Of a stretch of 64,000 nucleotides of DNA, positions 17,991-55,356 are shown piece after piece (position 1 is the first letter of the stretch; each line of letters starts with the position of its first letter). Made by a program: the position numbers and the translations under genes. The notes beneath the pieces are model-generated. The model was not told the DNA's origin and did no database searches. It saw only the letters and a list, made by a program, of their open reading frames with translations. Origin of the DNA: an uncultured archaeon (lineage in GTDB: Archaea > Asgardarchaeota > Lokiarchaeia > Sigyniarchaeales > SOKP01); contig CAZALK010000001.1 of the NCBI GenBank assembly GCA_964486045.1, forward strand, positions 456,242 through 520,241, written 5' to 3'.

Positions 17991-18676
17991 AAAAAATCAT
18001 TAATTTTTTTGTTTACTAATTCTTCATTTACTAAATTCTTTGTAGTTGCCCAAGTTTTCCTCGCAATGGAGGGTACTTTCTGGTTTTTTCTAATCCAATC
18101 CCGAAGAAAGTTAATAGTTTTTTTATCAGAAGGGTATCCCGAGCCGAAGTCTCCATATTTTTCCTTTAGTTCATCAATTAATGAGTCTCTTTTATCTTTG
18201 GCAATAATTGAAGCTGCAGATACTATAGGAAATAGGTCATCAGCTTTATGCTTTGAAATAATTTCTTTTGGATTATAATTTAAAAGATTGAGGATAGATT
18301 GTGCGAATCTTGCTTCATTTACATCAACAGCGTCAATATAGATAGAATCAGGTTTTAACTCCCTAATAATTTCAGCCATTTTCAGCTCCTCCAGTTTATT
18401 CAGAGTAATTCTTTTTTCTTCTCTTTTATCAATTTCATCGGGAAGAACAACAATAACTTTAAAAGAATAACAGGACTCCTTAATTAACTTTGCTAATATG
18501 CTCCTCCTTTTAGTAGTTAATTTTTTAGAGTCTTTTACACCGATTTTTGTTAAATAAGATAAGCTGGATTCCTTAAAACATACACCACATAAAACAAGAG
18601 GTCCAATTACGGGGCCTTTTGGCATATAATCCAATAAGGATTATATTCTACCAGCCTCGTCAATACCACAAATCAT
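17987..18676 (-). CDS. rnhB: Ribonuclease HII; spliced CDS (exons 18676-18648 and 18617-17987), 219 aa
   Basis: ATG at 18676 gives MICGIDEAGR. After a 30-nt insertion the same frame continues GPVIGPLV...GVKDSKKL...KAD...VSAASIIAK...GSGYPSD. The ORF-track start (18634) lies inside the insertion and lacks the catalytic DE. Confidence 0.93.
18618..18647 (-). other. Putative 30-nt BHB mRNA intron in rnhB
   Basis: mRNA: GAGGC UGGU AG^A AUAUAAUCC UUAUU GGAUUAUAU GCCA AA^A GGCCCC; in-frame UAA. Removal restores GIDEAGRGPVIG. Confidence 0.88.
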
Positions 18677-18689
18677 TTTTTATTTCTCC

Positions 18690-19691
18690 TTAAGAATCTT
18701 GGATGAGATCAATGAATTCTTCTTCATCATTCACTTCTTCCAAATTTCTTATTTTTACAATGTGTATATCGTTTCTTTTTGGAATTCCGGGTATTCTAAT
18801 ATTATTATCAATGATATAAAGCGCATTTTTATGAAATAAATCATTAAACATCTTCATGCTATTAAAATTCATCTCATTGATGGTACTCTGCTCTTCGGAA
18901 ATATTTGAAAAAAGTGGATAAAATCCGCCCTTTTCAATTTGTTCAAGCGAGGAAAATAATGATAATTTGAAAGGAACTGTACGCTTTTTATACCAATAAG
19001 AAGACAATCCTATGTCATCAATAATTGTTTTTATGTGGGATTCAAATTCACTTAACTCTTTTTCTTCAGAAATTTCTTTATCAGATATCTCGTTTTTAAT
19101 ATTCCATTTAAAAACGTTGATTTTTTTGAATATAGCATTATTTTCCAAAATACTTAAAATTTTTTCGGCCATTTTTTCAGATGGGCACATACTTTCATTT
19201 TCGTATGCACTTACAATTCTCTTTGCTACTCCTAATTGTTCTGATAACTCTTTTCTTGTAATAGATTGTTCTTCTCTTATTTGTTTCATCAAATTTCCAT
19301 TCAAATATATGACACCACCCCCTCTGCGTGCAAGAATATGGGGAAAAATATTATTAGTAAGAATCTTCTCAAAAGTTTTAAAAGTTATGAATGGTAAACC
19401 GTTCCTTATATATATTGTATTAACTTCTAACTTTTGATACCTGTTTCTAATTCCTATTAATAACGGTTTGGATTTTAATATGAGAGAAAATGATTTGATG
19501 TCTTGGATTATGTCCGGATTTATATTATCAATATTGGGAAAAACTTTCACGCTAAAAACTGAATCGTCTTTTTTGACTAATAAATCAAAACAAAATTTGC
19601 TCTTTTTAGTAGCAAAATTTCCTAACACAAAGGTCTCAAAATTAGCTTTTTTCAGCAAATTGTTAATTTTTTCAATTACAGTGTCAGTCAT
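18690..19691 (-). CDS. Archaeal HTH-type transcriptional regulator (nuclease-like N-domain plus XRE HTH)
   Basis: CFDLLVK...VKVFPNID, ARRGG, ITRKELSEQLGVAKRIVSAYE. Confidence 0.85.
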   Translation of the reverse strand: MTDTVIEKINNLLKKANFETFVLGNFATKKSKFCFDLLVKKDDSVFSVKVFPNIDNINPDIIQDIKSFSLILKSKPLLIGIRNRYQKLEVNTIYIRNGLPFITFKTFEKILTNNIFPHILARRGGGVIYLNGNLMKQIREEQSITRKELSEQLGVAKRIVSAYENESMCPSEKMAEKILSILENNAIFKKINVFKWNIKNEISDKEISEEKELSEFESHIKTIIDDIGLSSYWYKKRTVPFKLSLFSSLEQIEKGGFYPLFSNISEEQSTINEMNFNSMKMFNDLFHKNALYIIDNNIRIPGIPKRNDIHIVKIRNLEEVNDEEEFIDLIQDS

Positions 19692-19907
19692 CTAATCCGA
19701 TTACTTAAAATGTTAAGTTATAAATAAATTTTTTTTATGATGTTAATGTGTGCCCACATTTTTAAATTATTTCAGTTTTGGTGATTTTCAATACAATATC
19801 GAAGAGATTTATAAAATGTAATGAGAGTATTTTTGATTTAATAAGGATTTTAACTGATAAATAATTTAAAAACATATTTAAACGAACTATATAGAAGTTG
19901 ATGTTTT

Positions 19908-21152
19908 ATGTTAAAGGTGACTAAAGCCGGTTTTTTACCGATAGAAAAAAGTGAATTTCCGGAGCTTGTTGAAAGGAAAGGTATTGGACATCCTGACACA
20001 GTATGTGATGCTGTTGCTGATGCTTGCTCGAGAGCCTTGTGCGCTTATTATCTTGAGAATTACGATCGTGTCTACCACCATAATGTTGATAAAGCAGCTC
20101 TTGTTGGAGGAACCGCTAAACCTGAATATGGTGGGGGTTTAATTATTCAACCGCAATATTTTTTAATTGTTGGAAGAGCAATAAATCAGATCCTTATAGA
20201 TTGTGGAGATGGTAAAAATAAGCTTGAATATATTCCGGTTGCTACTATCTGTATTGAAACACAGAGAAGAATTTTATCCGAAATATTCAGAAACCTCGAT
20301 TTGAATAGAGATATTCAGTTTGATTATGCAGTTAGACCAGGATCGATAGATTTAACAGGAGTTTTTGATGAATCCCATCATACTAATGATGTTCCACTTG
20401 CTAATGACACTAGTTTCGGAGTAGGCTATGCCCCGTATTCTGATGTTGAAATAATTGCTTTAGAGGCTGAAAAGATGATTAATTCAGATAAATTCAAGAA
20501 GAAATGTAAAGGTTCCGGTGAGGATATTAAAGTAATGGTACAGAGAATTGGAAATGAAGTTGGAATAACAGTAGCGGCAGCTATGGTTAGTAAATACATA
20601 GAAGACGCAAGTGAATATGTTAGTTATACTAACCAAATTAGGGATTCTGTTCTAGATTTAGCCTCAGATATCATTCCAGGACGAGATGTGACTTGTCAAG
20701 TAAATGTGGCGGATAACATTGAGAAAGGTATAATGTTTTTAACCATCACTGGTAGCTCAGCAGAAGCGGGAGATGATGGGGAGGTAGGACGTGGTAACAG
20801 GTCTAATGGACTTATAACTCCTTGCAGAACTATGAGTTTAGAGGCGGTTTGTGGAAAAAATCCAATTAATCATGTAGGAAAATTGTATAATATACTAAGT
20901 ACGGAAATTGCAAGAGAGATTTTTCAACGAGGTCAAGGTGATATAATTGAAGCTCAAGTGAGGTTACTCTCTCAAATAGGTCGTCCTATAACTGATCCGT
21001 GGGTGAATTCTATCGAATTAATTCCAGCAGAAAATGTGAATTTTGAATCAATAAAAAAAGTAGCGGAAGAAGTATCAGCAGAAAAACTAAGTAAAGAGAG
21101 CTTCCTCGACCTAAGAAAAAAGCTCATAGCTGGGGAAATTCAGGTATTTTAA
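19908..21152 (+). CDS. mat: Archaeal S-adenosylmethionine synthetase
   Basis: [46 protein letters not shown]. Confidence 0.96.
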
Positions 21153-21256
21153 AATTTTATTACACAAATTTAAATTTTTTTCTCATTTTTTATAAAATAT
21201 ATTTATGCATTATTCTTCCTAATTACTAAAAAAAACTTTTTTAAAGTGATAATTGA

Positions 21257-21517
21257 GTGGGATTAGACAAGTGGCTTAAACCAGAAGAAGAAGGTAAAAA
21301 ACCAAACAGAAAAGATACTGCCTCAGCAAAAGAGAAAAGAAGTCCCGATGAAAAAAGTATAAACGTAGATCCTAAAAAAGTATACAGTACTCTAACAAAA
21401 TATAAACTTACCTGTACAAATTCAAAATGTAAATACCAAAAGACGATTATGAAAAAGCAACTCACAGAAATGGATAAAATTTGTCCAAGATGTAGAAAGG
21501 AAATGAAAAATAAATGA
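21257..21517 (+). CDS. Small zinc-ribbon protein
   Basis: CTNSKC...CPRC. Confidence 0.65.
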   Translation: MGLDKWLKPEEEGKKPNRKDTASAKEKRSPDEKSINVDPKKVYSTLTKYKLTCTNSKCKYQKTIMKKQLTEMDKICPRCRKEMKNK

Positions 21518-21550
21518 GTAATTAATTATTTTTTTTTCAAATTCGTGAAT

Positions 21551-21805
21551 TCAAACATCTCTTTCTTTGATGTGGATCTCGGGAAGATTCCCCAGATCAA
21601 ATTCAGCCTCGCAATTTGGACATGTATTAGGTTTTTTGCTATATTTTAAGATGTAATAAACGATAAACCCCACACCTAAGGTTAGGATTACTAAAAAACA
21701 GAGCAGTTCATGATATTGATGTTCAAAATTCTTACGTCGTAATACAACTTCACGCTCACATGTAGGGCAATACACTGTTCTCTTTACTTTTCTCGTATGT
21801 ATCAA
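21551..21805 (-). CDS. Zinc-ribbon membrane protein (LITAF-like CxxC-hydrophobic-CxxC layout)
   Basis: YCPTC...hydrophobic hairpin...TCPNC. Confidence 0.6.
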   Translation of the reverse strand: MIHTRKVKRTVYCPTCEREVVLRRKNFEHQYHELLCFLVILTLGVGFIVYYILKYSKKPNTCPNCEAEFDLGNLPEIHIKERDV

Positions 21806-22336
21806 CCCATTTTCTAAACAAGTTATTAATATTTATTTTAAATAAATTGAACTCTAATTAACATAAGGATAACTCAATTTCTTTTATATTTTTCGCTGGT
21901 GTTCCAATATTAACAGAATTTTTATCAAGGTATTGATAACTCTTCGTATCACTTTCCCTTCCTAAAATTTCGTTCTCTTCAATTATTTTGCTATAATAAA
22001 TCGCATTATTCGCGCTCTTTGTAAATCTATCTCTTTGGAAAAATGATATTTTCAACATTTTAAAAAAATTAAGATTTTAATAGAACTATCAATACGGAAA
22101 CTGATTTGAGTGTAATGAAAATTAGCAGGAATTGTTTTGCAGGATATAAAATTGACGATAAACTGGAATATCTTGAATTAAAAAGGCATATTGTCAATAT
22201 TAAAATGCTATTGAAATTGGTAAAAATTATAAAATTAAGGATATTTAGTATGAATTAAGCTTTTTTATACTCGATTCGACCAAAATTTATAAATTAGGGG
22301 AAAGATGTTATGGGGAAATAGGAGATTCTTATTTTA

Positions 22337-22489
22337 TTACTTAAATCCGATAAAGACTTTCTTTTCTTCCTTCTTTTCTTTTTTTTCACCAGAAGACAAT
22401 AAGTTCCACGTATTATCTACCCCTAATTCAGTAAGTTTTTGTCTTTCTTCTTCTATTAGTTCTTCTTCCTTTTTTTTTTCTTCACTCAT
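22337..22489 (-). CDS. Small charged protein (50 aa, not in ORF track)
   Basis: MSEEKKKEEELIEEERQKLTELGVDNTWNLLSSGEKKEKKEEKKVFIGFK; TTTATAAA TATA-like box upstream. Confidence 0.5.
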   Translation of the reverse strand: MSEEKKKEEELIEEERQKLTELGVDNTWNLLSSGEKKEKKEEKKVFIGFK

Positions 22490-22675
22490 TACATTCAATT
22501 ATAAATCTTTTGACTCTACTTATTTAGTAGACCTCACATTTATAAAATTTGGGGAAAGAAAAGGTAAAAATTAGAGATAAAAAAGAATCTTTAACATTCT
22601 GAATAAAGTTTTAAATTTGGAATTTAATAATTTATTAAAAAATTATACTTAAATAAAATATAATAGGGAAAAAGA

Positions 22676-23635
22676 ATGGCAAATTGTGCTCACTGTGGGA
22701 ATGAAATCATGGGAGAACCTATTTATTGCAACAACTGTGGACAAGATTATTGTTCTTTGCATAAAGAACCAATAGATCATGAATGTAACATTGTTAGGGA
22801 AAGTTTAAATGCACAACAAATACAGCAGGCTACTTCTTCCTATGCGGATATAAATCACGTTTCACCTACTCAAAATGAGCAAGAATATCAACAAACCCCT
22901 CCTGGTATAGCTCGTGGAACAACAGACGGAACTTATACATGGTTTCGACAAGAAACCCATGTCCCTACAAATGCTTTTGACCCCAATTCGGGGATTAAGT
23001 TTAAGGGAATCCTACTTCCACATTTATCAGAGTTAATCCATCTTATAATTGCCTCAATTTTGATATTTATTATAGGAATTATGATCTTTTTTAAAACTTC
23101 AGGTTTTACTTGGCCCACTTTTATGCTAGCAGGAATTTATATGACTGCTTTCCTTTTCCATGAATTTGGACATCGACAAGCAGCTGTCCGCTTTAAATTA
23201 CAAACAAAATTTAGATTACTTACATTTGGGATGTTTTTAACTATGTTTTCGCTTATTGCTGGCTTAATGCAATTACCAGTACCATCTCTAGCTTTACCAG
23301 GCGCTGTAGTGGTATTAGGATTAGAAAAAGTTAGTAAAAAAACAGGGTTATGTAAAGCGGCTGGACCAGTAGTAAATCTTGTTTATGGTATTGTTTTATT
23401 TGTAATCTCATTCTTAATTCCAGTTTATCCATTAAACTATCTCTTTGTGATTTCTGCTTATTTGAATTTTATGTTAGGCGCTTTCAATATGCTCCCTGTT
23501 GGTATTTTAGATGGACAAAATATTTTAAAATGGAATAAAAAAGTATATATCCTCTTAGCGACATCCTTAGTGGGACTTTTAATAGTGACATTAGTATTAA
23601 CACAAATCCCGGAGTTGCAACTGCTCTATCAATAG
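22676..23635 (+). CDS. AN1-type zinc finger fused to M50 (site-2) metalloprotease
   Basis: CAHC...CNNCGQDYCSLHKEPIDHEC; HEFGH, AGPVVN, FNMLPVGILDG. Confidence 0.88.
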   Translation: MANCAHCGNEIMGEPIYCNNCGQDYCSLHKEPIDHECNIVRESLNAQQIQQATSSYADINHVSPTQNEQEYQQTPPGIARGTTDGTYTWFRQETHVPTNAFDPNSGIKFKGILLPHLSELIHLIIASILIFIIGIMIFFKTSGFTWPTFMLAGIYMTAFLFHEFGHRQAAVRFKLQTKFRLLTFGMFLTMFSLIAGLMQLPVPSLALPGAVVVLGLEKVSKKTGLCKAAGPVVNLVYGIVLFVISFLIPVYPLNYLFVISAYLNFMLGAFNMLPVGILDGQNILKWNKKVYILLATSLVGLLIVTLVLTQIPELQLLYQ

Positions 23636-23845
23636 AAATAGGTTCAAATCTCATTTTATTAAAAGAATATTTATCGTTTGAAGAATGAAATTAGGGTTTT
23701 TAGGGTGTATAAAGAAATTAAAAGAAAAAATGAATAATAATAACCTAAAAAATTATCAAGGATTATACTTTTTTAGAATTATACTATTGGATCTTTTTAT
23801 TCATTCTAAAAAGAAAACGATACAAAAATTCATCTGTGATTTAGA

Positions 23846-24793
23846 TTGACGTATTGCGAATTCTGTGGTGATCAAATTGGTTATCTACCTTTTAATTGTA
23901 AATATTGTGGCGGAACTTTTTGTAAGAAACATAGATTGCCTGAAAATCATGAATGCACATTTGAATTGAAGCATGTACCAATTGAACCTGCAACTCCAAG
24001 AACCTCAAAGAATCGTTATCAAGATGTAGATTTTAAAAAAGTTACTTCTCCAGAATATTTAAATCATGGACCTAAGGTATTAAAGAAATATTTAAAAAGA
24101 CAAGAACGAGAAAAACGAAAAACTCTGAAATCTTATGAGAGCAGCCAAAAATCTTATAACAGACCAACTCAATTTTCAGGTACGAAGACCTTATTTTTAA
24201 TGATAATTCTTTTTTCAATTCTTGGAATTATTTTTAGCCTTAATGAGTTTACTCGATATATATATATGAGTTTGCATAGTTTGATTTTTGATTTTACCTA
24301 CCACACATTATTTACAAGTCTTTTTACTAGTGATACAAGTTATCTTGGGTTATTCTTTTTGGTGATAATGTTAATGTTTCTCTATATTATGGCAAGAAAC
24401 ATCGAGGCAAGAAAGGGATCTAAATTTTTGTTTAAGCTCTACATTATTAGTAGCCTATTTTCTGTATTGTTTTATATCATATTGAGATTATCTCTGCATT
24501 TTTATATGCCAATAGAGTTATTTTCGGTATATGTTGGGTTTGCTTGGGGGGGAATATTAGGAATATTATCATACTCACTTTTTCCAATAATGAATCAGCA
24601 AATTACTGCTATGATGTACTTTCTTCCAATTAAATTGAAAGGCAGAACATTTTTGTATATCATCATATTATTTAGATTATTACCGGGTTTATTGCTTGCT
24701 ATTAGCAGTCCTATATATATATTGTTCTATTTACCAGATTTAGGTGGGATTTTGGGAGCTTATGTACTATACAGAACCCAAGTAGGAAGATAA
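23846..24793 (+). CDS. AN1-type zinc finger fused to rhomboid-fold membrane domain (apparently inactive)
   Basis: CEFC..LPFNCKYCGGTFCKKHRLPENHEC; TLFTSLF, GFAWGG and PDLGGILG align with the rhomboid GxSG and AHLGG positions. Confidence 0.75.
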   Translation: MTYCEFCGDQIGYLPFNCKYCGGTFCKKHRLPENHECTFELKHVPIEPATPRTSKNRYQDVDFKKVTSPEYLNHGPKVLKKYLKRQEREKRKTLKSYESSQKSYNRPTQFSGTKTLFLMIILFSILGIIFSLNEFTRYIYMSLHSLIFDFTYHTLFTSLFTSDTSYLGLFFLVIMLMFLYIMARNIEARKGSKFLFKLYIISSLFSVLFYIILRLSLHFYMPIELFSVYVGFAWGGILGILSYSLFPIMNQQITAMMYFLPIKLKGRTFLYIIILFRLLPGLLLAISSPIYILFYLPDLGGILGAYVLYRTQVGR

Positions 24794-24895
24794 GTAAATT
24801 GTTCACCTTTTCTTTTAAATACATAAAAATTATCTATGAGAATGATTTTATTAATGTAATTCATCTGATTTCAAAACATATATAAAATCTAGATA

Positions 24896-25552
24896 ATGCC
24901 CAACAAAGAAATCTCAACCGTTATTGAGTTAAATGAGGATTTACTTGCCAATAACGATAGATTAGCACAGCAAAATAGTAAGGTTTTAAAGGAACTTAAA
25001 ATAAAATCCATTGATTTTGTGGGAGCTATTGGAGCGGGAAAAACAGCAATTATTGAAGCTATAGTAAAGAGAATTTCAGGGAAATACCGAATCCTCGTAA
25101 TTAATGGTGATGTGACTACCAGAATTGATGCTGATAGGATAAGTAACCATGGTGCTACTACAATTCAAATTAACACGGGTCGGGAATGCTCATTAAATTC
25201 GTATCATATTTCTCAAGTTATAAAAAATTACGATTTAAATGAAATTGATATACTGTTTATTGAGAACGTTGGAAATTTAATTTGTCCTTCAGATTTTATC
25301 CTAGGCGTGGATAAAAGAGTTATTATCGTTTCTATTACTGAAGGTCCATGGGTTGTACGTAAACATCCAATGTTATTTAAATCTTCAGATGTAGCTGTAA
25401 TAAATAAAATAGATTTAATAGATGTAATGGATGTGAACATAGAAAAAATGATAGAGGATGCTGAAAAGATCAATCCTAATCTAAAAATTTTTACCACCAG
25501 TGCGTTAACTGAGGAAAATATAGAGAAGCTAATAAATGAGTTATTAGTTTAA
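24896..25552 (+). CDS. hypB: Hydrogenase nickel-incorporation GTPase HypB
   Basis: GAIGAGKT, QINTG, ENVGNLICP, SITEG, NKIDL. Confidence 0.9.
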   Translation: MPNKEISTVIELNEDLLANNDRLAQQNSKVLKELKIKSIDFVGAIGAGKTAIIEAIVKRISGKYRILVINGDVTTRIDADRISNHGATTIQINTGRECSLNSYHISQVIKNYDLNEIDILFIENVGNLICPSDFILGVDKRVIIVSITEGPWVVRKHPMLFKSSDVAVINKIDLIDVMDVNIEKMIEDAEKINPNLKIFTTSALTEENIEKLINELLV

Positions 25553-25616
25553 ATTAATAATAAAAGTGAAAGAAAATAATATAATAATTAAGTAAAAAAG
25601 TTCTGATGGATATATC

Positions 25617-26033
25617 ATGTCATTTAGACAATATAACACGGAGTTAGGAACTCTAGTAGAAAAAATCGTCAAAGTATATATTGATAAGGATAAATTTTTC
25701 GTTGGACAATTAAAAGGAATTTCAGAAGATTCAAACCTTATTCTTATTAATGCAAAAAATGAAAAAAATAAAGTATTTCCAAAATTGTTTATAAGAAGTA
25801 ATTTTTATAATTTTGTAAGTTTAGAAGAAGAACCATTCCCTATGGTTGCACTGAGCGACCGGATAGCCACTGTTTTCTCTAAGGGACATGTAAATTATAT
25901 TGAAGATCAAAATATAATCTCGATATTAAGTGGTAAAATCGTTGTGGACGAACATGGTGTGAAAGGGACAGGGCCTAGCGCTGAAAGGGTAAAAAAAATT
26001 TATGAACAATTTAAGATGGATCTAGAAGATTAA
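25617..26033 (+). CDS. Lsm/Sm-like RNA-binding protein with C-terminal domain (SmAP3-like)
   Basis: Sm1-like FVGQLKGISEDSNLILINA and Sm2-like LFIRSN, followed by an archaeal Lsm_C-type tail. Confidence 0.8.
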   Translation: MSFRQYNTELGTLVEKIVKVYIDKDKFFVGQLKGISEDSNLILINAKNEKNKVFPKLFIRSNFYNFVSLEEEPFPMVALSDRIATVFSKGHVNYIEDQNIISILSGKIVVDEHGVKGTGPSAERVKKIYEQFKMDLED

Positions 26034-26061
26034 CTATAGTTTTCAAATTTTTTAATTTATT

Positions 26062-35175: not shown

Positions 35176-35754
35176 ATGGGACGTCGTAAAAGAAAACAAG
35201 CTTCACCAAGAAGGGTGAAACGGGTGCCGAAAATTTTCACCTGCCCAGAATGTGGGGAGAAGAGTGTTAAAGTCACTGACATTAAGAAAAAAGGAGCTTT
35301 TGCTACAGTAAAATGCGGAAATTGTGGATTGACGAAGGAAGTGTTAGTAAATTCAATATCAGAACCCGTCGATGCATTTGGGGATTTTATAGATATATTT
35401 TATGCTGATCAAGAACTTCAAAGATTAGAAAAACGTATTATAAAATTCAAAGAAGATAATGCATTGGGAGAAATTATATTATCTTATTCAATCTTATCAG
35501 ATCTTTGTAAAGTTAAAGCCGCTATATTATTAGACGAAGAACCAATAGATATAGATGCAGTAAATAGCTGGAAAATGAAAGCTGAAGAATATAAACGACT
35601 GGAAAAGGGTGCATTATTAAAACTTGATTCTGAAGAACTAGAACGAGGAGTTCGAACAGATGAAGAATCCTTGTTTACAGAGAGTGAGACCAGAATAAAA
35701 AAAGGACGAAAAATTGAAGATACCTTTGACGATCCTGGGTTTTTAGAATTTTAA
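35176..35754 (+). CDS. elf1: Transcription elongation factor Elf1 with C-terminal extension
   Basis: MGRRKRK...PKIFTCPECG..V.CGNCG...EPVDAFGDFID. Confidence 0.85.
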   Translation: MGRRKRKQASPRRVKRVPKIFTCPECGEKSVKVTDIKKKGAFATVKCGNCGLTKEVLVNSISEPVDAFGDFIDIFYADQELQRLEKRIIKFKEDNALGEIILSYSILSDLCKVKAAILLDEEPIDIDAVNSWKMKAEEYKRLEKGALLKLDSEELERGVRTDEESLFTESETRIKKGRKIEDTFDDPGFLEF

Positions 35755-44370: not shown

Positions 44371-44373
44371 AAA

Positions 44374-45555: not shown

Positions 45556-45675
45556 TTTAATTTTTCCTTTAATATATCTATTTTTGATTATGGTAATACT
45601 TGATATCAAATTATTTAAGATTTATTTCATTAAGAAATAAAAAATGTATTTATTATTCATTCACTTTTTTAAGAG

Positions 45676-48312
45676 TTGATAAGAATATTACAAAAAATTG
45701 AAAAGCTTTCATTAAATGGAACATGGGTTATAAAAAGTTTAGAGAAATCAATTAAAATATATGGTCAAGTTCCTGGAACTGTTTTTGAAGCTTTACTAGA
45801 AAATAAAATTATAGATGATCCTTTTTATGGTGAAAATGAGAAAGGAATGAAATGGGTGTATGAGTCTGATTGGCAGTATGAAATAGAATTTAGCTTAGAA
45901 CCAAATTTTCTAGAACATAAAAAAATATTATTGCGGTTTTATGGATTGGATACAATAGCAGAAGTGATTTTAAATGGTGAATCTATAGGTTCTGTAAATA
46001 ATATGTTTGTAAGATATGATTATGAAGTGAAGTCTAAATTAAGGGAAACAAATAATAAATTAGAAATCAAATTTAGAAGTCCAACTTCAAAAAGCCGTGA
46101 AGAAATAGAAAAAAATAGAATAATGTTAAATACTGGTTACGCAGCAATCCCTGGGATTCCGTATTTGAGGAAGGCACAATATTCATTCGGTTGGGATTGG
46201 GGACCTAAATTGCCAGATATCGGTATTTGGAAAACCGTTGAAATAATAGGATTCGATGAGATTAAAATCAAATCGGTTTTTCCGTTTACAAATCTCGAAT
46301 TTAACAAAAATCCTTTGAATATTAGTGATCCTAATGAATTTTCTACGATTGAGGTAAAAGCAGCAAGTATATTCATAGAAATTGAATTTGAATTAAGTAA
46401 TGAAAATATTTCGGACTTTTTTTACATAATAAAAGCCCAGTTAAAAGCGCCAAATGATGAGGTGTTTATTAAAGAAATCCCTCTGAGTAAGAAAAAGGAA
46501 ACATTTAGATTTGATATTGAAAATCCTTTTCTCTGGTGGACACACGATCTCGGGATTCCAAACCTCTATCAAATAGAAATTTTTATCTTAAAGGATGAAA
46601 TATTAGAAAGTGTAACTCAGCAGATAGGATTAAGATCTATTCAGCTTGTTAGAAAATCGGATAAGTGGGGGGAAACATTCTATTTTCTTCTAAATGGAAT
46701 TCCGCTCTTTACAAAAGGTGCAAATTGGATTCCAATAGATAGTTTTATTCCAAGGGGTAAGAAGCTAGGACTTTATTCTATGAATTTGAATTATGCCAAA
46801 AGAGCTAACATGAATATGATTCGTGTATGGGGCGGGGGGATTTATGAGGATGAAACCTTCTATAATTTGTGTGATGAATTGGGATTGTTAGTTTGGCAAG
46901 ATTTCCCATTCGCTTGCGCACTGTATCCTTATAATGCTGAATTTATTGAAAATGTAGAACAGGAAGCAATTCAAAACATAAAGAGATTAAGAAGACACAC
47001 TAGTCTTGCATTATGGTGTGGTAATAATGAAATTGAATCAATGTGGAAACGGGTCAATAATTCAAAAATTATAGAAAATAGTATAGAAAGGCTTAATTTT
47101 CTAACAAAATTTTATTTGAAAATCTTTGAAGATATCTTACCTCAATTGATTAAGAAATTTGACCCAACTCGGGCTTATTGGCCTAGTTCACCATCAAGTG
47201 GGTTTATTAGTGAAAAACTTGCAGGAGGGAGTTCAAATAATCCCAATATCGGTGATTCACACTACTGGGCAGTGTGGCATGGAAATTTGCCTTTCTCTGC
47301 TTATAAAAAGTTCAATTCTCGTTTTATGTCTGAATTCGGCTTTGAATCTTTTCCTTCCTTGAAAACTATTGAAAAATTTTGTCCCTTTGATCAATATAAT
47401 TTCAATTCCCCAAGTATGGAAAACCATCAGAAAAACTCCGCTGGCAATCAGAAAATTATGGATTATATGGATAAACGGTTTTCGATACCTGAGGAATTCG
47501 AACATCAAATATTTTTATCACAAATTACTCAAGCAGAAGCAATAGAATATGGTGTAGAGCATTGGAGACGAAATCGTAATGAATATCATTGTATGGGTTC
47601 TCTTTATTGGCAATTGAATGATTGCTGGCCTGTTGCAAGTTGGTCCTCACTGGATTACTATGGGAGGTGGAAAGCGCTTCACTATTTTGCAAAACGGTTT
47701 TACCAACCACTTTTCGCAAGTGTCCAAGAGAACCCTTTCCAAGTAGAATTTTGGGTATCAAATGATTTAAAAGAACCGTGTGAAATCGATTTAGACTGGA
47801 AAATACTAAATTCTGAAGGGGATATACTATTGAAAGGGATTAAATCTGCAAAGATTTTTCCATGTAGTTCTTCAAAACTCGAATCGGTGGATGTAAGTGG
47901 AATAAATATTGATGAAAAATCCATTCAAAATAATATCATATTCTATAAATTATTTCAAAGGGATAAACAAAAAAGATTAGTTTATAGCGGATTTCGTTTA
48001 TTTGATGCTCCTAAATTTTTTACCTTAAAAGATCCGAAAATATCGTACACATATGAAGAATTAATTGATGTAAAAAATAATAATAGCTGCTTTAGACTAA
48101 GATTAAAAGCACAGAATATCGCGTTATATGTCAACATCGACTCAGATTTAGTTGACATCATAACTACGGATAACTTCTTTTCAATGGAACCTAATGAAAC
48201 ATATACAATCGATATTGAAATCATAAGAACTGTAATGTCTACTACATCTTATTCGAATCAGAGGATTATTGACTCCTTCAAGATAAGATCGCTGTATGAT
48301 ATCTATAAATAA
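45676..48312 (+). CDS. Beta-mannosidase (GH2)
   Basis: [53 protein letters not shown]. Confidence 0.93.
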
Positions 48313-48403
48313 AAATTTACAGCTAAAAATTCTATTTTTTCTTTTATAAAGAAAAGACAGATCCATAATTAAAAAACAACTTAACAAAAAAAAGTGTTTA
48401 ATT

Positions 48404-48715
48404 ATGGATTTAGACACATATGTCTCAAGTGTTGAGGATGGGCTTGAATTCCTTATTGCATTCTTCTCGTTATTGGGATTAGCTTATACTTTTAATTTGA
48501 ACTCCTTCCATGAAATTTTCAGCTATATCTTCATATTTTTAGTGTATTATTTCTTTAAATACGGATTTAAAGGTATAAACTACTTCATACAAAATATCTC
48601 CTCAGATAAAATGAGACCACCTCGTTTTAAAAAGATCCATTATAGAGACTTAACTCGTCGAAGGAGAAAACCAATTCAATTTAGAAAATTAAAAAAATTT
48701 GAATATGAATATTAA
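48404..48715 (+). CDS. Small membrane protein
   Basis: Two hydrophobic segments and a basic tail; upstream of the ATPase. Confidence 0.5.
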   Translation: MDLDTYVSSVEDGLEFLIAFFSLLGLAYTFNLNSFHEIFSYIFIFLVYYFFKYGFKGINYFIQNISSDKMRPPRFKKIHYRDLTRRRRKPIQFRKLKKFEYEY

Positions 48716-48730
48716 AAAAAAGTTTTTAAA

Positions 48731-50752
48731 ATGGAAGCAGCTTATTGGTTAGTTAAAGTAATACTGTCACAAGGTCCCGCGAAACAAGAAAAAGAAACTT
48801 TCCTCGATTATGAGAATAAAAACAAAATTGAGATTGAAAAAACGTGGTTAAGCAATTTTTTCCAGAATGATACAGTGTATGGATTAGAACTTACTTCAAT
48901 AGGTAATAAAATTGTATGGGAATTCTTTGTTAAGGCCAGGACATATGAACAAGCAATTATACAAGGAAGCCTATTACTCAAATCATTAAAAATGAAGTTT
49001 CCGGGATTGTCTGGAACATATAAGGCGATTCCCATTACAATTGAATATTTTTCCAATCAAAATTCACTCCTTTATGAACTTGTATTACCTTCTCAAATAA
49101 TAAACAGAATCCGATTTTCCATTATAAAACAATTCATTCAAAATAGTAGAGATAACCCTAATAAGAACCGTATTTTAAGATTATTTATATCATGGCAAGA
49201 AGACGATTCTGTCTCTAATTCCAATAGTGCCCCATATGGTTTCTCGGAATTTGGAGACTTTAAAATCAAAATTTTTGTAAAGATTGATTTCAAAAATTTA
49301 CCATTTAAAAATAAGAAATCTGTAGATCCTCTACTACAAGCAGAACTTGATTTCCTTGTAATGAATATTTTAAATCTCAGAAGAGAAAGCGCTTATATAA
49401 AGGAAGTTTCCAGCAATATATTGAAAAGAATCTTAGAAGGAAAAGTTTTCTGGGTGAATCATAAACGGATACAAACTGGAAAAAGATATTACAAAATTAT
49501 GCACGAAATTCCGTTGATGATACAACCATCGTTCATTAGACCATATAATGGAGATTTTAATTTCTCTGGGCATTCTGGACTACCAAGACCATTTATTTTA
49601 GAGGATGAGAAAATTGTCGACTTGGATATTTCAGAGAATGATCAAAATTTTATTTGGTTCGGAAAAATGTTGCGACAAGGTGTCCCAACTGAAGATAACG
49701 CTTATTTTCATATAGATAACCTTTCACAAAGCTGTATTATCGCAGGTGAGACAGGAACAGGTAAAACTAACTGTGCAAGTATAATTGTTAATGAGATTAA
49801 TAGAAAAGCACCTCAAATTGGTATTTTAACCATAGGATTGTCAAAAAAAAATCAAGATATCTTTTTTAAACCTGATAAAATCATTAGGTATGGGGATGAA
49901 GAACTAAAAATTCCATATTTTGTTAAACCCAACTCGAACGTGATGACTTTGGAAAAATATGCCCAAGAAACTGCTATGTATTTAACTGCTGCTATCGGTT
50001 TGAAGGGTACTGCTACAACTTGTACTTACAATACTATGATGGCTTACAATGGTGCTAAAAATTGCCCTATGACCCCAACTGGATTGTTTGAATCGACACT
50101 CAACTATCTTGATCATCCCGAGCATAAATATCACGAAAAATTTCAGACTAATATTAAATCTGAGATATTAAATAATGTATTTGAACGATTTAATGACCCT
50201 ATTATTGAAAAAGTTCTCACGTTGACTCCTAAAATTCCTAAATGGTTTAAACAATGGCGAAATGGAGTAAACATCTATATTGACCTTACAGAAGCAAGTG
50301 TATGGTCGAAAATAATTGCATGTTTTGCCTTATTCCAAATGATAAAGACTCTTACTGCTGACCTCGACGTTCATACATTAAACAACCTGATTGTGATTGA
50401 TGAAATTAAACATCTTGGGGCAAAACCACTATCTACTCACCCATACGATGATTTTCGCATCGCTAAAGAACGTCTAGAAATTATCTTGAAAGAATTACTC
50501 GAAGAATTCCGAAGCAGAGGAATAGCTTTCCTTTTAATTGATACAGACCCTTCTACCTTGTTTAAGTCTATTTCCAAATCCCCAAGCTTAAAATTCGTGT
50601 TTAGACTCGACCTTGAGAGCGGAAAATGCTTCACGCCAGACCAAAAGGAATTAAAATATATAAAAAATCAAGTACATCGGCACGCGATATTTTTTAACGG
50701 TGCTACAGGTGAAGAGTTCATAATTAAAACGTTAAGAAATAGGATTAGATAA
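48731..50752 (+). CDS. HerA/VirB4-like (FtsK-HerA superfamily) ATPase
   Basis: IAGETGTGKT, LIVIDE, EFRSRGI, KFVFRL. Confidence 0.8.
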   Translation: MEAAYWLVKVILSQGPAKQEKETFLDYENKNKIEIEKTWLSNFFQNDTVYGLELTSIGNKIVWEFFVKARTYEQAIIQGSLLLKSLKMKFPGLSGTYKAIPITIEYFSNQNSLLYELVLPSQIINRIRFSIIKQFIQNSRDNPNKNRILRLFISWQEDDSVSNSNSAPYGFSEFGDFKIKIFVKIDFKNLPFKNKKSVDPLLQAELDFLVMNILNLRRESAYIKEVSSNILKRILEGKVFWVNHKRIQTGKRYYKIMHEIPLMIQPSFIRPYNGDFNFSGHSGLPRPFILEDEKIVDLDISENDQNFIWFGKMLRQGVPTEDNAYFHIDNLSQSCIIAGETGTGKTNCASIIVNEINRKAPQIGILTIGLSKKNQDIFFKPDKIIRYGDEELKIPYFVKPNSNVMTLEKYAQETAMYLTAAIGLKGTATTCTYNTMMAYNGAKNCPMTPTGLFESTLNYLDHPEHKYHEKFQTNIKSEILNNVFERFNDPIIEKVLTLTPKIPKWFKQWRNGVNIYIDLTEASVWSKIIACFALFQMIKTLTADLDVHTLNNLIVIDEIKHLGAKPLSTHPYDDFRIAKERLEIILKELLEEFRSRGIAFLLIDTDPSTLFKSISKSPSLKFVFRLDLESGKCFTPDQKELKYIKNQVHRHAIFFNGATGEEFIIKTLRNRIR

Positions 50753-50855
50753 CTATAGATGGGCTTATTTGGTTAAAAATTCAATAATTCTGAAATTTTC
50801 CTTTAAATACTTTTATTATAATATCTTAATAGTCAAGTTCTATGAGAGGATATAA

Positions 50856-51350
50856 ATGGAAAATCTTGGAAAAACCTTCTTAATGGTTATTGAACCTTAT
50901 GATTTTGATATGAAGCAGCAAAAAGTGTTTCATTCTGATTTTGGGTTTGTAATAGTGACCGCATCAGAATTTTTTAGAGATTCTATGATAAAACTCTGTA
51001 AAGAATGCCATAGTGTGCGAAAAAGGAACTTTGGTCCAAAAATTCTCACAAGTACTCGAAAACGTATGAGAGACTTTGTTAACAAATCAATAAAAACAGA
51101 ACGTGACTTATTAGAGTTAGTGGCAATGTTATTTGATATTGCTTACTATACTGCGGTATCTCATGATAAAAATGCTCATTTAAGGAAATTTATTGCGATT
51201 GAAGGAGCAACCCCTACATATTTTGGATTTGTAGGCTCAAAAGATTATAACAGTTTTGATATCATTAGCAAAATCCAAGAAAAAATTGGGAGCACGAAGG
51301 ATGGGAATGGGACAGGTTGTTGTTTTGAAATTTATCAAATTAAAAACTAA
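50856..51350 (+). CDS. Hypothetical protein
   Basis: 164-aa ORF with GAGG RBS. Confidence 0.6.
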   Translation: MENLGKTFLMVIEPYDFDMKQQKVFHSDFGFVIVTASEFFRDSMIKLCKECHSVRKRNFGPKILTSTRKRMRDFVNKSIKTERDLLELVAMLFDIAYYTAVSHDKNAHLRKFIAIEGATPTYFGFVGSKDYNSFDIISKIQEKIGSTKDGNGTGCCFEIYQIKN

Positions 51351-51496
51351 TAAAACATTAAAGGGATATTAGAAACAATTTAGACGAAACTTACACGCGG
51401 GGTTCTAAATAAGAGTGGGATTGAAGAATTTTTCTTTATAAATGCTTATTTATCTTTATTTCAATTAGTTAAAATTTACAAAATTCACACGATAAA

Positions 51497-54379
51497 ATGA
51501 GCTTCAAATCGAAAGGTCCGAAATCACATCCCAGCCACAGCCCTAAAGCTAAACCCGAACCGCCTAAACCCACCCCTGAAAAAGATTCAAAACCATCTAA
51601 CCAAAAACCGAACCAAAAGCCAAAACATAAACCTAATCAAAATTCTAAACCTCAACCAGGAAAAATTCGACAGGATAAAAATCAAAAACCAAAAACTAAC
51701 CCAAGTGAAAAATCTAAAAATAATATTAGCCCACCCCTCCTAGACCTGAATAACAATGCTAAAAAGATCATTACTAACCTCGCCTCTCAGCCAATTAAAG
51801 AACATACCACACCTCCTACAAAATCTCCCCTAGAACCGAATAAAGAATCTAAAAACAGAATAATCCGACCCGTTTTCAAACCGAATATGATTCAAAATGG
51901 TAATAATAGAATTAAACGCCCTAACTTCAAACCGGATCAACATAAAGGATCTAAAAATATCATCTCCCGACTAATATTCGATCCAAATAAACCTTCCTCT
52001 AATAAAAATAAAATTTCTCGGCCAAATTTCATACCTAATGATGAAGCTAAGAATAAAATCATAAAATATACAATTGAATCAACAGGAAAACCTAAAAACA
52101 GAATTAATAGATACCAAATTGACTCGGGTAAAAACCAACAATATAATAATAAAATAAGGAGGATTCCATTCAAGCCAAATGATGAAATTAAAAACAATAC
52201 CGAAAGTACACCCGCCAGACCTAAGCATATCAAAAATAATAGTCAACCAGCAATAATAAAACCAACTACTACACCCCCCCAAATAACCAAAAACAAGATT
52301 ATTAAGACTGAACCCCTCACTCACCCGCAAAAAGAAACCAGGAAAAATATAGTTAAATCCAGATGGGCATTCCTTAACTACGATGCTCAAGGAAACCTAC
52401 TCTCGCGTGAAGTCAAAATGCAAAATGCTGTCAACCACTTCAACCGAGAAATCCTTCCCGAATTAATGAAAGATCCCGCCATCGCTAAAAAAATTAAAAA
52501 ATTACACACAGTCGGTTCAAACGACCTAGTTCGTAAAAATTATAGCGGATTCCTCAACGCCTTGAGCAGAGAACATAAAATTAAATGGAGTGAACTCAAA
52601 TCTACTATAAGTCCTATTAAAATTACCACACATTTAACCATGCTGAAAGGGAAAACCTCGCTCAAGCCTAAACATAAGACTAAATCCAAACCAGATCTTA
52701 ATTATGACTACTTTTCCATGAATTATGATGATAACCTAAATCCGCTTAACCGTGAACAAAAACTTCAAAAGGCAATCACAGTCTACAATCAAAAAATTTT
52801 ACCTGATCTCCAAAATGTTCCAGAAATTAAAGAAAAACTCGAAAATGGAAAGAGTGTAAGCTACCGAGACCTTGAAAATCAAGGGTATGGGAATTTTTAC
52901 GAGGCTTTAAATAGAAATGGCGTGAAGATCAGATGGAACGAATTCAAACAAGAAGCTGGCTATAAAGTTAACATTGATCACGAAAAATACAAGTTTCTTA
53001 ACTACGATCAGAATGGCAATAGAATTAACCCTGAGGAAAAATTAGTCATTGCCCTTGACCACTACAATAATATTATCGTACCAGACTTGATGAAAATCCC
53101 TGAAATCAAACAAAAGATTGAATCTGGATATCCTCCTGCCCTTGATGATTTGATTAAATACGGACATCCGGGATTCATCGCACCCCTCTCTCAAAAAGAA
53201 CCAAAAATCCATTATAACACCTTAATTGAAGCAGCAGGCCTTAAACCAAATGTGGATCACAATAAATATCGATTCTTAAATTACAATGAACAAGATACTC
53301 CTCATTCTTATCAAGACAAAATGGAAATTGCCAAGGAATTCTTCAGTAATATCATTGTCCCAAAGCTGATCGAGAAAGATTTAATTAGACCAGGGGAAAC
53401 TCCAGGTCTCAGGGAAATGGTCAAGGGTGGATTCAGTGGATTTTTTCCTTCTCTCGCCTTTAAAGAACAGAAAATTGATTACAATGATCTAATTCAAGCA
53501 GTAGGTCTCGACCCAAATATTACTCATGGTCGTTGGGATTTCATCAAATATGACCATAACGGAAATATTCTCTCGAAGGAAGAAAAACTCGCCAACGCTG
53601 CTGATTATTTTAACACAATTGTTTACCCCGATTTAATTAACAAGGATGCTGTTAAGCAAGGAGAAGCCCCGACTTCCCTTGATCTACAGGATTATAAGCA
53701 TGAGGATTTTCTCAGTGCCTTGCGTGGTAAAGAACCTAAAGTTTCATTTAACCGTTTAATTGAGCATGCGGGATTCACCCCACATGATTTTAATACTTTA
53801 TCTACAATAGGCACTAATTTTCATTGGACCGCAGAAAAAATTTTTTTGGAACATACCAGAAATCAAAATTGCACTTCTTTCTATGAAGTTAGAGGAAATG
53901 GTGACAATTCAATTGTAGTTGATAAAAATTTTAAAAATTTATCCAATGGTGCGGATCTTCTTGCTCAATTACGTCCAAATATTAAGATTATTAATTTTGA
54001 TTATTTTCTCAGTAACTCAGAAAAAAGTAAAACTGATCATAGCCAAAGAAACTACCAAGGTGAAGAAGTAGCGCTTTGTCTTATCCCTCTAAATGCTAAT
54101 GAACCGCAAGACATAGATCAAGACATTCCTCATAGTAATAATGTTTTAGTTTTAAATCCTAAAGGTTTCGCCGCTTTCCTGGGATATAAAGATGGAATTT
54201 ACGATAAATTTATGGAAAGTGTCCAATTAGCGAGAATAGCCATGTACGATGAGGAGGCAAAAGAGATATTATATGAAATGAGAGTAGAAGCTTATGATGC
54301 CCTAAAAAGCAATGAAAACGATTTAAATTACTCGACAAAAGAATTTAAAAAGTTCCGCGATACACAAAAAGAAACTTAA
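51497..54379 (+). CDS. Low-complexity leader + five ~90-aa repeats + putative PD-(D/E)xK nuclease domain
   Basis: K/P/N-rich N-terminus with KNRI.RP.F.PN mini-repeats; 5x (F)LNYD..GN....EK...A..(F/Y)N..I.P.L...G...F..AL; C-terminal GTNFH...YE...GD...FDY. Confidence 0.7.
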   Translation: MSFKSKGPKSHPSHSPKAKPEPPKPTPEKDSKPSNQKPNQKPKHKPNQNSKPQPGKIRQDKNQKPKTNPSEKSKNNISPPLLDLNNNAKKIITNLASQPIKEHTTPPTKSPLEPNKESKNRIIRPVFKPNMIQNGNNRIKRPNFKPDQHKGSKNIISRLIFDPNKPSSNKNKISRPNFIPNDEAKNKIIKYTIESTGKPKNRINRYQIDSGKNQQYNNKIRRIPFKPNDEIKNNTESTPARPKHIKNNSQPAIIKPTTTPPQITKNKIIKTEPLTHPQKETRKNIVKSRWAFLNYDAQGNLLSREVKMQNAVNHFNREILPELMKDPAIAKKIKKLHTVGSNDLVRKNYSGFLNALSREHKIKWSELKSTISPIKITTHLTMLKGKTSLKPKHKTKSKPDLNYDYFSMNYDDNLNPLNREQKLQKAITVYNQKILPDLQNVPEIKEKLENGKSVSYRDLENQGYGNFYEALNRNGVKIRWNEFKQEAGYKVNIDHEKYKFLNYDQNGNRINPEEKLVIALDHYNNIIVPDLMKIPEIKQKIESGYPPALDDLIKYGHPGFIAPLSQKEPKIHYNTLIEAAGLKPNVDHNKYRFLNYNEQDTPHSYQDKMEIAKEFFSNIIVPKLIEKDLIRPGETPGLREMVKGGFSGFFPSLAFKEQKIDYNDLIQAVGLDPNITHGRWDFIKYDHNGNILSKEEKLANAADYFNTIVYPDLINKDAVKQGEAPTSLDLQDYKHEDFLSALRGKEPKVSFNRLIEHAGFTPHDFNTLSTIGTNFHWTAEKIFLEHTRNQNCTSFYEVRGNGDNSIVVDKNFKNLSNGADLLAQLRPNIKIINFDYFLSNSEKSKTDHSQRNYQGEEVALCLIPLNANEPQDIDQDIPHSNNVLVLNPKGFAAFLGYKDGIYDKFMESVQLARIAMYDEEAKEILYEMRVEAYDALKSNENDLNYSTKEFKKFRDTQKET

Positions 54380-54570
54380 GATGAGAATAGAATTAATTAT
54401 AAATATGAATTGTTTTACTATTTATTACAAGAACTTATATTTATAACAATTAAAAGAGTTAATTTTAGTAAAAATATAATTTATATCGAACTTAATAATA
54501 TGGTTGTTTATGATGTTTGATCGTAAAGGAAATTATTGGAATTACCAATTAAAGCTAGGAGGTGCGAGAA

Positions 54571-55356
54571 ATTCTCCATAATTTTTACTTGATACACCAG
54601 CATATCTCCCCGGAGATTCTCCGTTGAGTGTTAACGGGTATCTGTTTAATACATAGAAATTATGGCACCATCGAATTCAATCAGGATTTAGTGAGTGGCT
54701 TTCTAACCGCCCTTAAGGACTTTAGTGTTGAGTTTTCCAAGGGTAGCGGAGAACTCAAGGTTATAGGTTGTAGATAGATTTTATCTATTAATAAAGACAT
54801 GCAGATATTTTATCTGCTTTTAGTCTTTAAGGAGGGTGTCTTATGTACAGCTGCTGCTGATAAAAATGATGATGCCAAGATTACCCATAAAGCACTAACT
54901 GATATTATTGACAAATTCGTAGGAAAGTTCGGTGATCAGCTTGAGAATTGGTCTGGTGATGTACGTATTTTTCGAGACTTTGAGAGCATAATCGACGATG
55001 TCCTGAAAGTAGGTAAGGTTGCGGAGATCCAGCTAAAGATCCCGATACTCAAAATTTTCAAGAAGGATTTCATCAAGTCGCAGAAGCGCATTGCGAAGAA
55101 GGGGCTGGTGCTTTCGGAGGCGGATTTGCGAGAGGTGAAGGATGTGAAACCGGAGTGGGCTGCCAAGCGCTTACCGAAACAGGTTATAGCGACCGGAATT
55201 TTAGATGCGGTGGAGTTTGATATCGCGCATTTAGCGGACGGATTTCACACGCTTTCGGATATCGCGGAAGAGTCGGGTCACCCAGTGCCAGAGATTCAGA
55301 AGATTATGGACAATTTAGACAAGTTAGAGCTTCTTTCGTTTGTAGAGATAAAGTAA
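54571..55356 (+). CDS. Longin-like domain protein with C-terminal wHTH; spliced CDS (54571-54604, 54635-54766, 54797-55356), 241 aa, ATT start
   Basis: AGGAGGTG RBS at 54557-54564. Spliced product MLHNFYLIHQHTGICLIHRNYGTIEFNQDLVSGFLTALKDFSVEFSKGSGELKVIDMQIFYLLLVFKEGVLCTAAAD matches the Asgard longin-like pattern; DGFHTLSDIAEESG is wHTH-like. Confidence 0.82.
54605..54634 (+). other. Putative 30-nt BHB mRNA intron 1 in longin-like gene
   Basis: GAUAC(A)CC AGCA UA^U CUC CC CGGAG AUU CUCCG UU GAG UGUU AA^C GG GUAUC; in-frame UGA at 54625-54627. Confidence 0.83.
54767..54796 (+). other. Putative 30-nt BHB mRNA intron 2 in longin-like gene
   Basis: G UUAU AG^G UUGUAGAUA GAUUU UAUCUAUUA AUAA AG^A C; in-frame UAG at 54775-54777. 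Removal gives LKVIDMQ. Confidence 0.83.

Follow-up and report, generated by a model that had tools for sequence, protein, structure and literature searches.

The stretch of DNA considered here, referred to as the window, comprises 64,000 nucleotides (nt) of contig CAZALK010000001.1 (assembly GCA_964486045.1, positions 456,242 to 520,241). It contains two protein-coding genes that are interrupted by three inserts of 30 nt each, which we interpret as putative bulge-helix-bulge (BHB) introns that would be removed from messenger RNA (mRNA) by the enzymes of tRNA splicing. The host is a metagenome-assembled genome (MAG) of the Promethearchaeota (Asgard), a name taken from a public-genome scan and in line with the Asgard-like origin proposed in a preliminary description made from the letters alone. 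The genome has 5.18 Mb in 45 contigs with 31% G+C, a completeness of 99% and an estimated contamination of 7.8%. It is called G000 below, its closest relative G013, and C1, C13 and so on are contigs of G000. One of the interrupted genes encodes RNase HII, the other (gene 2) a longin-like and winged-helix protein:

17987..18617, minus strand: RNase HII exon 2, stop codon included (this exon alone matches Pfam RNase_HII at 1.4e-43)
18618..18647, minus strand: intron 1, 30 nt, within RNase HII, with an in-frame UAA
18648..18676, minus strand: RNase HII exon 1, ATG to codon 10 (MICGIDEAG plus AG of the Arg codon)
54562..54604, plus strand: gene 2 exon 1, start codon uncertain
54605..54634, plus strand: intron 2, 30 nt, with an in-frame UGA
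54635..54766, plus strand: gene 2 exon 2
54767..54796, plus strand: intron 3, 30 nt, with an in-frame UAG
54797..55356, plus strand: gene 2 exon 3, stop codon included, with a weak HTH_47 winged helix at the C-terminus

The positions, the length of exactly 30 nt and the three different stop codons are those given in the preliminary description, which had also claimed that excision restores stop-free proteins typical of their families. In silico this holds for both genes. Intron 1 divides the catalytic motif of RNase HII, GIDEAGR/GP (a slash within a protein motif marks the junction). As it stands in the DNA, the frame runs from MICGIDEAGR through ten codons, UAA among them, to GPVIGPLV, and excision of 18618-18647 yields an uninterrupted RNase HII of 219 amino acids (aa), MICGIDEAGR/GPVIGPLV...; Pfam RNase_HII extends in one stretch across the site (1.6e-45, read through with X at the stop). 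Excision of introns 2 and 3 gives a protein of 244 aa which is collinear with the uninterrupted 241-aa ortholog of G013, and the residues at both junctions, ...IHQH/TGICL... and ...ELKVI/DMQIF..., are those of this ortholog. The Longin and winged-helix Pfam matches of the gene 2 protein are weak and all below threshold. As to its start, the GTG at 54562 falls within the Shine-Dalgarno-like run AGGAGGTG, and the G013 ortholog begins MLHNFY.

Comparison with related genomes, a check that had been proposed at the outset, revealed a clear pattern of presence and absence. Introns 2 and 3 are missing as clean 30-nt gaps in all 16 aligned congeners, the coding sequence being otherwise collinear, and the two introns are therefore recent gains on the G000 lineage. 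RNase HII was searched in 30 relatives and the DNA upstream of the GPVIGP motif was read. Here the insert is found in 17 of the 17 same-genus genomes that are readable at the site, with a constant length of 30 nt and an in-frame stop in every case, whereas it is missing from two genomes that belong to other families of the same order. A public-genome scan added more carriers and one related MAG (L094) without the insert, which is absent from the other families represented by L019, L020 and L094. The RNase HII intron is therefore old and shared.

The inserts were folded with a 35-nt flank on each side. They follow a common plan, in which 1 nt, 23 nt (a stem of 9 base pairs (bp) with a 5-nt loop, or an equivalent), 4 nt and 2 nt add up to the 30 nt, and a cut after the second bulge nucleotide removes, in silico, exactly the 30 nt required by the protein comparison in all three cases. 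The preliminary description had attributed to each insert a 4-bp central helix between 3-nt bulges and an internal hairpin, and the three differ in how closely their minimum free energy (MFE) structures conform. For intron 2 the MFE reproduces the hBHBh' form exactly, with the central helix AGCA/UGUU, the bulges UAU and AAC on opposite strands, an outer helix of CC/GG plus GAUAC/GUAUC and an inner helix of CUC/GAG plus a 5-bp hairpin. Intron 1 holds a 5' bulge AGA, a perfect 9-bp hairpin with a 5-nt loop, a central helix UGGU/GCCA and a 3' bulge AAA; its MFE retains the 5' bulge and the hairpin but draws a competing fold with a 3-bp central helix and a 4-nt 3' bulge, from which the equally available canonical register of 4 bp and 3 nt differs by a shift of one nucleotide. 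In intron 3 the central helix UUAU/AUAA consists of A-U pairs only, the bulges are AGG and AGA, the inner hairpin has 7-9 bp and the outer helix only 1-2 bp; this is a relaxed BHB motif, and the MFE does not draw it. The inner helix h' is strong throughout (7-9 bp). The outer helix h is good in intron 2, interrupted in intron 1, and reduced to 1-2 bp in intron 3 and at the RpoA' and EF-2 sites described below.

The inserts are real at the DNA level. Both gene 2 introns lie on Logan contigs of the probable source sample (X1, no differences) and of another sample from that study (X2, one difference), and intron 3 is bridged by a 222-nt Logan contig from a different study (X3, record 8) with five differences and no gaps; loose ends in run X3 resemble the intron-less relatives. 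A further run, X4, covers insert 3 and reaches only 16 nt beyond it and was not counted as a bridge. The RNase HII insert is held by 24 distinct independent assemblies.

Further genes of G000 are interrupted in the same manner:

C13:44101-44130: RNA polymerase A' (RpoA'), restored motif CMGHFGH/IELARP
C13:92018-92047: EF-2, restored motif ITAH/IDHGKTT
C3:186175-186204: thiolase, same architecture, Pfam domain spanning the site
C5:195271-195300: AIR-synthase-like protein, same architecture
C18:43552-43581: LOR/Zn-ribbon protein, insert absent in G013
four small GTPases (one Rab-like): 30-nt introns, three of them just before the P-loop strand

In RpoA', thiolase and RNase HII the Pfam domain runs across the site without a break. 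RpoA' is a single-copy gene, with one RpoA' domain-1 match in G000, and so is EF-2. The preliminary description had suspected that gene callers report truncated reading frames, and for EF-2 this is indeed the case: in this genome, as in about 20 related clusters, the protein is recorded with 702 aa or fewer, begins MRPEDAG... (residue 49) and is devoid of the G1 motif, one of these records being an NCBI entry named elongation factor EF-2, whereas the intron-less relatives have 750 aa. In the protein collection there is no full-length EF-2 on record with at least 98% identity to any N-truncated one (the best reaches 97.7%), and therefore no candidate for a spliced transcript; a search of the metagenome contigs for the exact EF-2 junction after splicing gave no match. 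Spliced products would be recognised by the predicted junction peptides ...FSITAHIDHGK..., ...GHFGHIELAR..., ...GIDEAGRGPVIGPLV... and ...ELKVIDMQIF....

Three of the small GTPases, which are paralogs (C17:96895-96924, C1:~29540, C6:~13933), have their 30-nt intron in a common position, just ahead of the beta1/P-loop strand; the intron must predate the duplications unless insertion there has been recurrent. A probable 27-nt intron at C7:~54807 (+) would restore ...DFQMND/KCAAGTGRFLE... in an ATPase of the BcrAD/BadFG type. Two other stop-containing genes were rejected as intron carriers, the stop adding no length in either: an Arf-like gene with a TAA (C6:93937-94413, +) and a Ras-family gene with two TGA, at a conserved Trp position (C2:161086-161439, -). 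They may be pseudogenes, errors, contamination or cases of recoding.

The position of an intron was expressed as U/(U+D) of the stop-to-stop frame, and the scan treated both ends alike. For the 13 introns whose identity was secured by motif restoration, by a Pfam domain reaching across the site or by an ortholog, this value places every one in the first 40% of the frame, and many lie no further than 10-80 codons into it. Since motifs near the N-terminus are the easier ones to recognise by eye, and since three of the GTPases are paralogous, this 5' bias is a lead and not a result.

The strongest single argument for selection on an RNA structure of exactly the BHB shape comes from compensatory changes at the RpoA' site. 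A degenerate pattern for both exon edges with a gap of 20-50 nt found this site occupied in 10 of the 135 family genomes and in five of the 13 genera, and the reversed-pattern control gave none. Eight of the inserts have 30 nt, one has 31 nt and one 40 nt. Across eight intron sequences from four genera, 95.2% of the cells are paired, against at most 44% with slid partners; the central helix is paired in full, and eight of the 13 pairs show compensatory changes, one of them in the central helix (covariation score 0.604 vs. 0.225). The hairpin sequences themselves differ almost wholly between genera. Since the distribution is patchy, repeated loss or transfer would have to be assumed, as for cbf5 (PMC2738675). 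For the RNase HII intron the BHB model comprised one outer, four central and nine inner pairs. In 24 distinct sequences 92.9% of the cells are paired, as compared to 28-40% after a shift of the partners by 1-3 columns; within the central helix the figure is 92.7%, five pairs are altered on both sides, and none of 500 shuffles matches the observed values. At both sites the covariation lies above all 500 shuffles and all slid-partner controls.

An insert at the identical GR/GP site of RNase HII also occurs in a GC-rich MAG labelled Bathyarchaeia (L116:~275-300, CAYWPD010000039.1). Its 26 nt allow a 4-bp helix CGGG/CCCG and a 6-bp hairpin, the bulges being AGA and AAG, although the MFE shows a continuous helix instead. 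This observation suggests either mRNA BHB introns outside the Asgard archaea or gene transfer.

The number of such introns per genome is more difficult to assess. BHB motifs with lengths of 12-90 were counted by structure only, genome-wide and also in the reversed genome. The background per length is about 6,500 with loose and about 1,000 with strict criteria, and these scans revealed no excess of 30-nt motifs over other lengths or over the reversed sequence; therefore, the intron population would be modest and its size rests on sampling. The search for BHB motifs whose removal fuses reading frames, which the preliminary description had recommended, was of limited use, since the output of the ORF-fusion (open reading frame) and codon-score filters was dominated by gene boundaries. 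A strict scan (4/4 central helix, at least 7/9 inner pairs, an in-frame stop, open frames on both sides) did recover cases with restored motifs, the true ones being picked individually by these motifs, and showed a small excess with 233 matches at a length of 30 against 176 at 27 and 220 at 33. In a very strict length-spectrum scan there were six matches at 30 nt and between zero and eight at other lengths. Sampling of domain families gave a 30-nt insert inside the matched domain in one of 89 Ras-family cases, with a second just before the domain, and in none of 56 radical-SAM domains. In about 200 kb aligned with the closest relative we found three coding insertions specific to G000, all of 30 nt, and none specific to the relative. 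Taken together, this suggests that about 1-2% of the genes are interrupted, corresponding to a few dozen to about 100 introns per genome. The broad scale envisaged in the preliminary description is supported by the further genes with the same architecture, RpoA' and EF-2 included, but its figure of three per 64 kb overstates the density, the window lying above the genome average.

The three G000-specific insertions (two in gene 2, one on C18) were found by alignment and without regard to structure, and each shows full 4/4 pairing of the central helix in the register that is needed, for which we estimate a chance of about 0.03 per register from the pairing frequency. As the genome scan was aimed at 30 nt, most 30-nt cases were ascertained by length; among the length-unbiased cases (alignment indels and the Ras domain match), four of five have 30 nt. 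Inserts of 26, 31, 32 and 40 nt occur as well, and the uniform 30 nt of the preliminary description is the commonest length and not a rule. The 32-nt case is a frame-changing relaxed BHB insert of the congener G003 in a small Zn-ribbon gene, ...KIFTCPE/CGEKSV... (contig C18 of G003, L061-L063); the ortholog of this gene in the window, near ~35248 (~35190-35300, +), is uninterrupted. When nine introns were compared with the whole genome, each had a full-length match only to itself and other matches of 23 nt or less with chance-level E-values. A repeat family or a mobile element resembling miniature inverted-repeat transposable elements was rejected, there being no other copies in the genome, and an origin by local duplication was likewise not retained (longest word shared by intron and flank, P = 0.10 and 0.17 for the two recent introns, not significant).

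The genome also encodes the enzymes that such introns would require. Two of the genes are located in the window, next to gene 2:

55813..57285, plus strand: RtcB RNA ligase (PF01139, 3.6e-167; C1:512216-513523, which is window 55975-57282)
57303..57756, minus strand: archease, the RtcB cofactor, convergent with rtcB (PF01951, 1.1e-39; C1:513545-513964, which is window 57304-57723)

This RtcB is the only copy found in the genome and is encoded directly downstream of the doubly interrupted gene 2. The gene order gene 2/RtcB/archease is kept in relatives without the gene 2 introns, and the proximity may be a coincidence or a regulatory link. Upstream of gene 2, about 6.3 kb (window ~48318-54633) are without counterpart at this place in G013 or G002, in which the flanking genes are about 130 nt apart. 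The region contains ORFs of 678 aa (48716-50750), 164 aa (50856-51348) and 960 aa (51497-54379), and part of it is 70% identical to another region of the G013 contig. It is a lineage-specific insertion that ends just upstream of gene 2.

Two paralogs of the splicing endonuclease EndA, of about 200 aa each, are present in the genome, at C7:36262-36867 and C10:136871-137473. Paralog 1 has the catalytic residues Tyr/His/Lys, as judged by eye, and its best PDB match is the tRNA-splicing endonuclease chain 3p1z_B/3ajv_B (186 residues, 1e-33), which we take to be the catalytic subunit of the Aeropyrum pernix heterotetramer. In paralog 2 the catalytic His is lacking, again by eye. The pair would conform to the (alpha-beta)2 pattern, with subunit roles predicted from these comparisons. 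Most Asgard genomes have two EndA paralogs (10.64898/2026.10.13.758758). According to PMC5829648, (alpha-beta)2 enzymes accept relaxed BHB motifs, and relaxed forms need an (alpha-beta)2 or epsilon2 enzyme. The program aragorn called only 29 tRNAs, 18 of them with introns of 6-68 nt that mostly look odd, and miscalled several as Pyl or Stop. The tRNA genes are probably heavily and non-canonically interrupted, in agreement with the Asgard tRNA introns and the two-paralog EndA reported in 10.64898/2026.10.13.758758.

In our opinion the inserts are very probably BHB introns in mRNAs, a few dozen to about 100 per genome, which would be cut out by EndA and sealed by RtcB. In the pre-mRNA, four nucleotides of the 5' exon would pair with four nucleotides near the 3' end of the intron; each strand would carry a 3-nt bulge next to this central helix, and the intron hairpin of about 9 bp would continue the stack. 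EndA would act as the nuclease, and RtcB together with archease would join the exons and probably circularise the 30-nt intron. The full protein would arise only from the ligated mRNA, splicing thus preceding translation, while the unspliced RNA would end at the in-frame stop. This proposal is supported by all the sequence-level tests that could be made, which established the geometry, the register that restores the frame, the compensatory pairing, the recent and patchy gain and loss, the essential single-copy hosts and the presence of the enzymes. With somewhat less assurance, we also consider it likely that the whole Asgard family routinely splices dozens of mRNAs, those for RpoA', EF-2 and RNase HII among them, by the tRNA-splicing pathway, with gain and loss between species still going on, a bias towards the 5' third of genes and one preferred 30-nt plan.

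Several points weigh against EndA/RtcB splicing of these mRNAs. There is no observation at the RNA level, that is no junction reads, no circular intron and no junction-spanning peptide, and none of the listed holders of the gene 2 region or of EF-2 is an RNA run. The proposal offers no account of how splicing would outrun coupled translation, above all where an intron lies as little as 10-60 codons after the start. The absence of an excess in the structure-only scans counts here as well. Recognition despite the weak or broken outer helix of introns 1 and 3 and of the sites in RpoA' and EF-2 would call for an enzyme of relaxed specificity, which is assumed from the two-subunit architecture of EndA. 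Finally, no mechanism explains the origin of unique 30-nt hairpins with exon-complementary ends, of which there are no copies and no significant similarity to the flanks.

The inserts could instead be removed from the RNA by a different and so far unknown machinery, such as another hairpin endonuclease with a ligase or a ribonucleoprotein, the fit to the BHB motif arising incidentally from a hairpin whose flanks are complementary over a short length. The weak outer helices would then be less surprising, and the preference for 30 nt, the 9-bp stem and the 5-nt loop correspond to no known requirement of EndA; moreover, Asgard tRNA introns have a median length of 22-23 nt (10.64898/2026.10.13.758758). 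However, the conserved elements are precisely those of an EndA substrate (a 4-bp helix and opposed 3-nt bulges) in a register fixed by the restored frame, the covariation extends beyond the hairpin to the central helix, and EndA, RtcB and archease are present while no other candidate was seen. We therefore regard such a machinery as unlikely.

Another way to obtain the full proteins would be programmed translational bypassing ("hopping", as in T4 gene 60 and the mitochondrial byp elements), by which the ribosome skips the 30 nt and the mRNA remains uncut. Known bypass gaps have 27-55 nt, and the size range, the hairpin and the stop within the gap, which is in frame in all three inserts, do resemble bypass elements. 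The take-off and landing codons, however, are unmatched (AGA...AAA, CAU...UUA, AUA...AAA), the stop does not directly follow the take-off codon, and inserts of 26, 31, 32 and 40 nt at equivalent sites shift the frame and still fit the BHB cut register. A covarying 4-bp helix with opposed 3-nt bulges plays no role in bypassing, which makes this explanation decidedly improbable, more so than an unknown nuclease.

It is even harder to believe that the inserts are simply retained, in pseudogenes, in genes for split or truncated proteins, or in frames that are read through with an insertion of ten residues. Gene callers do yield plausible truncated ORFs, for example the 702-aa EF-2, and the contamination estimated for the MAG calls for care. 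Truncation, however, would remove the P-loop of EF-2, the zinc-clamp motif of RpoA' and the catalytic DEAG motif of RNase HII, all encoded by single-copy genes. In as many as 24 lineages both flanking exons have remained intact and conserved, the use of all three stop codons fits no single recoding, and the inserts conserve structure and not sequence. An assembly or sequencing artefact, for which only the general caution due to MAGs speaks, or a DNA element excised before expression is next to inconceivable, since the same inserts occur in dozens of independent assemblies and in Logan contigs of other samples and of another study, and no DNA of the same strain that lacks the introns came to light. 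Self-splicing group I or II introns and inteins were discarded, the inserts having 30 nt and stop codons as opposed to a ribozyme core of hundreds of nucleotides or a stop-free in-frame domain.

If the proposed splicing by EndA and RtcB is true, this would be the first prokaryote with a set of intron-bearing protein-coding genes, and mRNA maturation would have to precede translation in relatives of the eukaryotic ancestor. Its confirmation would mean that Asgard gene catalogues hold systematically truncated or split proteins, of which the P-loop-less EF-2 is already deposited under that name. Expression of core genes would then depend on the capacity of EndA and RtcB and on splicing outrunning translation, thereby giving a handle on the uncoupling of transcription and translation. 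Such introns would also offer a natural system for the origin of protein-spliced introns in coding DNA and a non-spliceosomal precedent for the debates on intron origin; no link to spliceosomal introns follows by itself.

We found no publication describing these mRNA introns; subscription journals were outside the search, and an earlier priority is possible. EndA-spliced introns in mRNAs of archaea count as great rarities. The nearest known case is the pre-mRNA intron of cbf5 in Crenarchaeota, which was reportedly described by Watanabe et al. in 2002. As proposed for the genes studied here, a BHB-type intron lies in a protein gene, is missed by gene prediction and occurs in a host with a two-subunit EndA; the cbf5 intron is removed by the tRNA-splicing pathway and has undergone lineage-specific gain and loss (PMC2738675). 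However, it concerns one gene per genome in thermophilic Crenarchaeota, whereas dozens of genes, including rpoA1 and EF-2, would be affected here; the Asgard family is mesophilic, continues to gain inserts and strongly favours the 30-nt plan. The splicing of cbf5 has been demonstrated by experiment, while ours is deduced from sequence. HVO_1309 of Haloferax volcanii has a BHB intron in its 5' untranslated region, cbf5 having been until then the sole other mRNA case (PMC7714728). It likewise provides an mRNA substrate of EndA outside tRNA and rRNA; unlike the inserts described here, it is a single case in an untranslated leader and interrupts no reading frame. The BHB introns of archaeal tRNA and rRNA, those of the heavily interrupted Asgard tRNA genes included, have the same motif, presumably the same enzymes and repeated independent gains; the preprint on the tRNA introns makes no mention of mRNA introns (10.64898/2026.10.13.758758). 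In tRNA and rRNA hosts the fold of the host itself supplies the exon half of the motif, whereas here the exon half is coding sequence.

Two more distant systems invite comparison. In the splicing of XBP1 and HAC1 the nuclease is IRE1, the substrate has twin 7-nt loops and the XBP1 intron has 26 nt. This system, which is mentioned in PMC13149111, resembles the proposed one in being protein-only and independent of the spliceosome, in its very short mRNA intron, in the RtcB-type ligation and in that the outcome sets which protein is made; it differs in nuclease and motif and in having one regulated target instead of a genome-wide set. T4 gene 60 and byp share the short, stop-containing and hairpin-forming gap within an ORF, but they depend on a match between take-off and landing codons that the inserts lack, and involve neither BHB geometry nor cutting of RNA. 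The mechanism, a BHB intron in an mRNA, is known from cbf5 and HVO_1309, and what is new is its scale, its host lineage, its evolutionary dynamics and the stereotyped 30-nt build.

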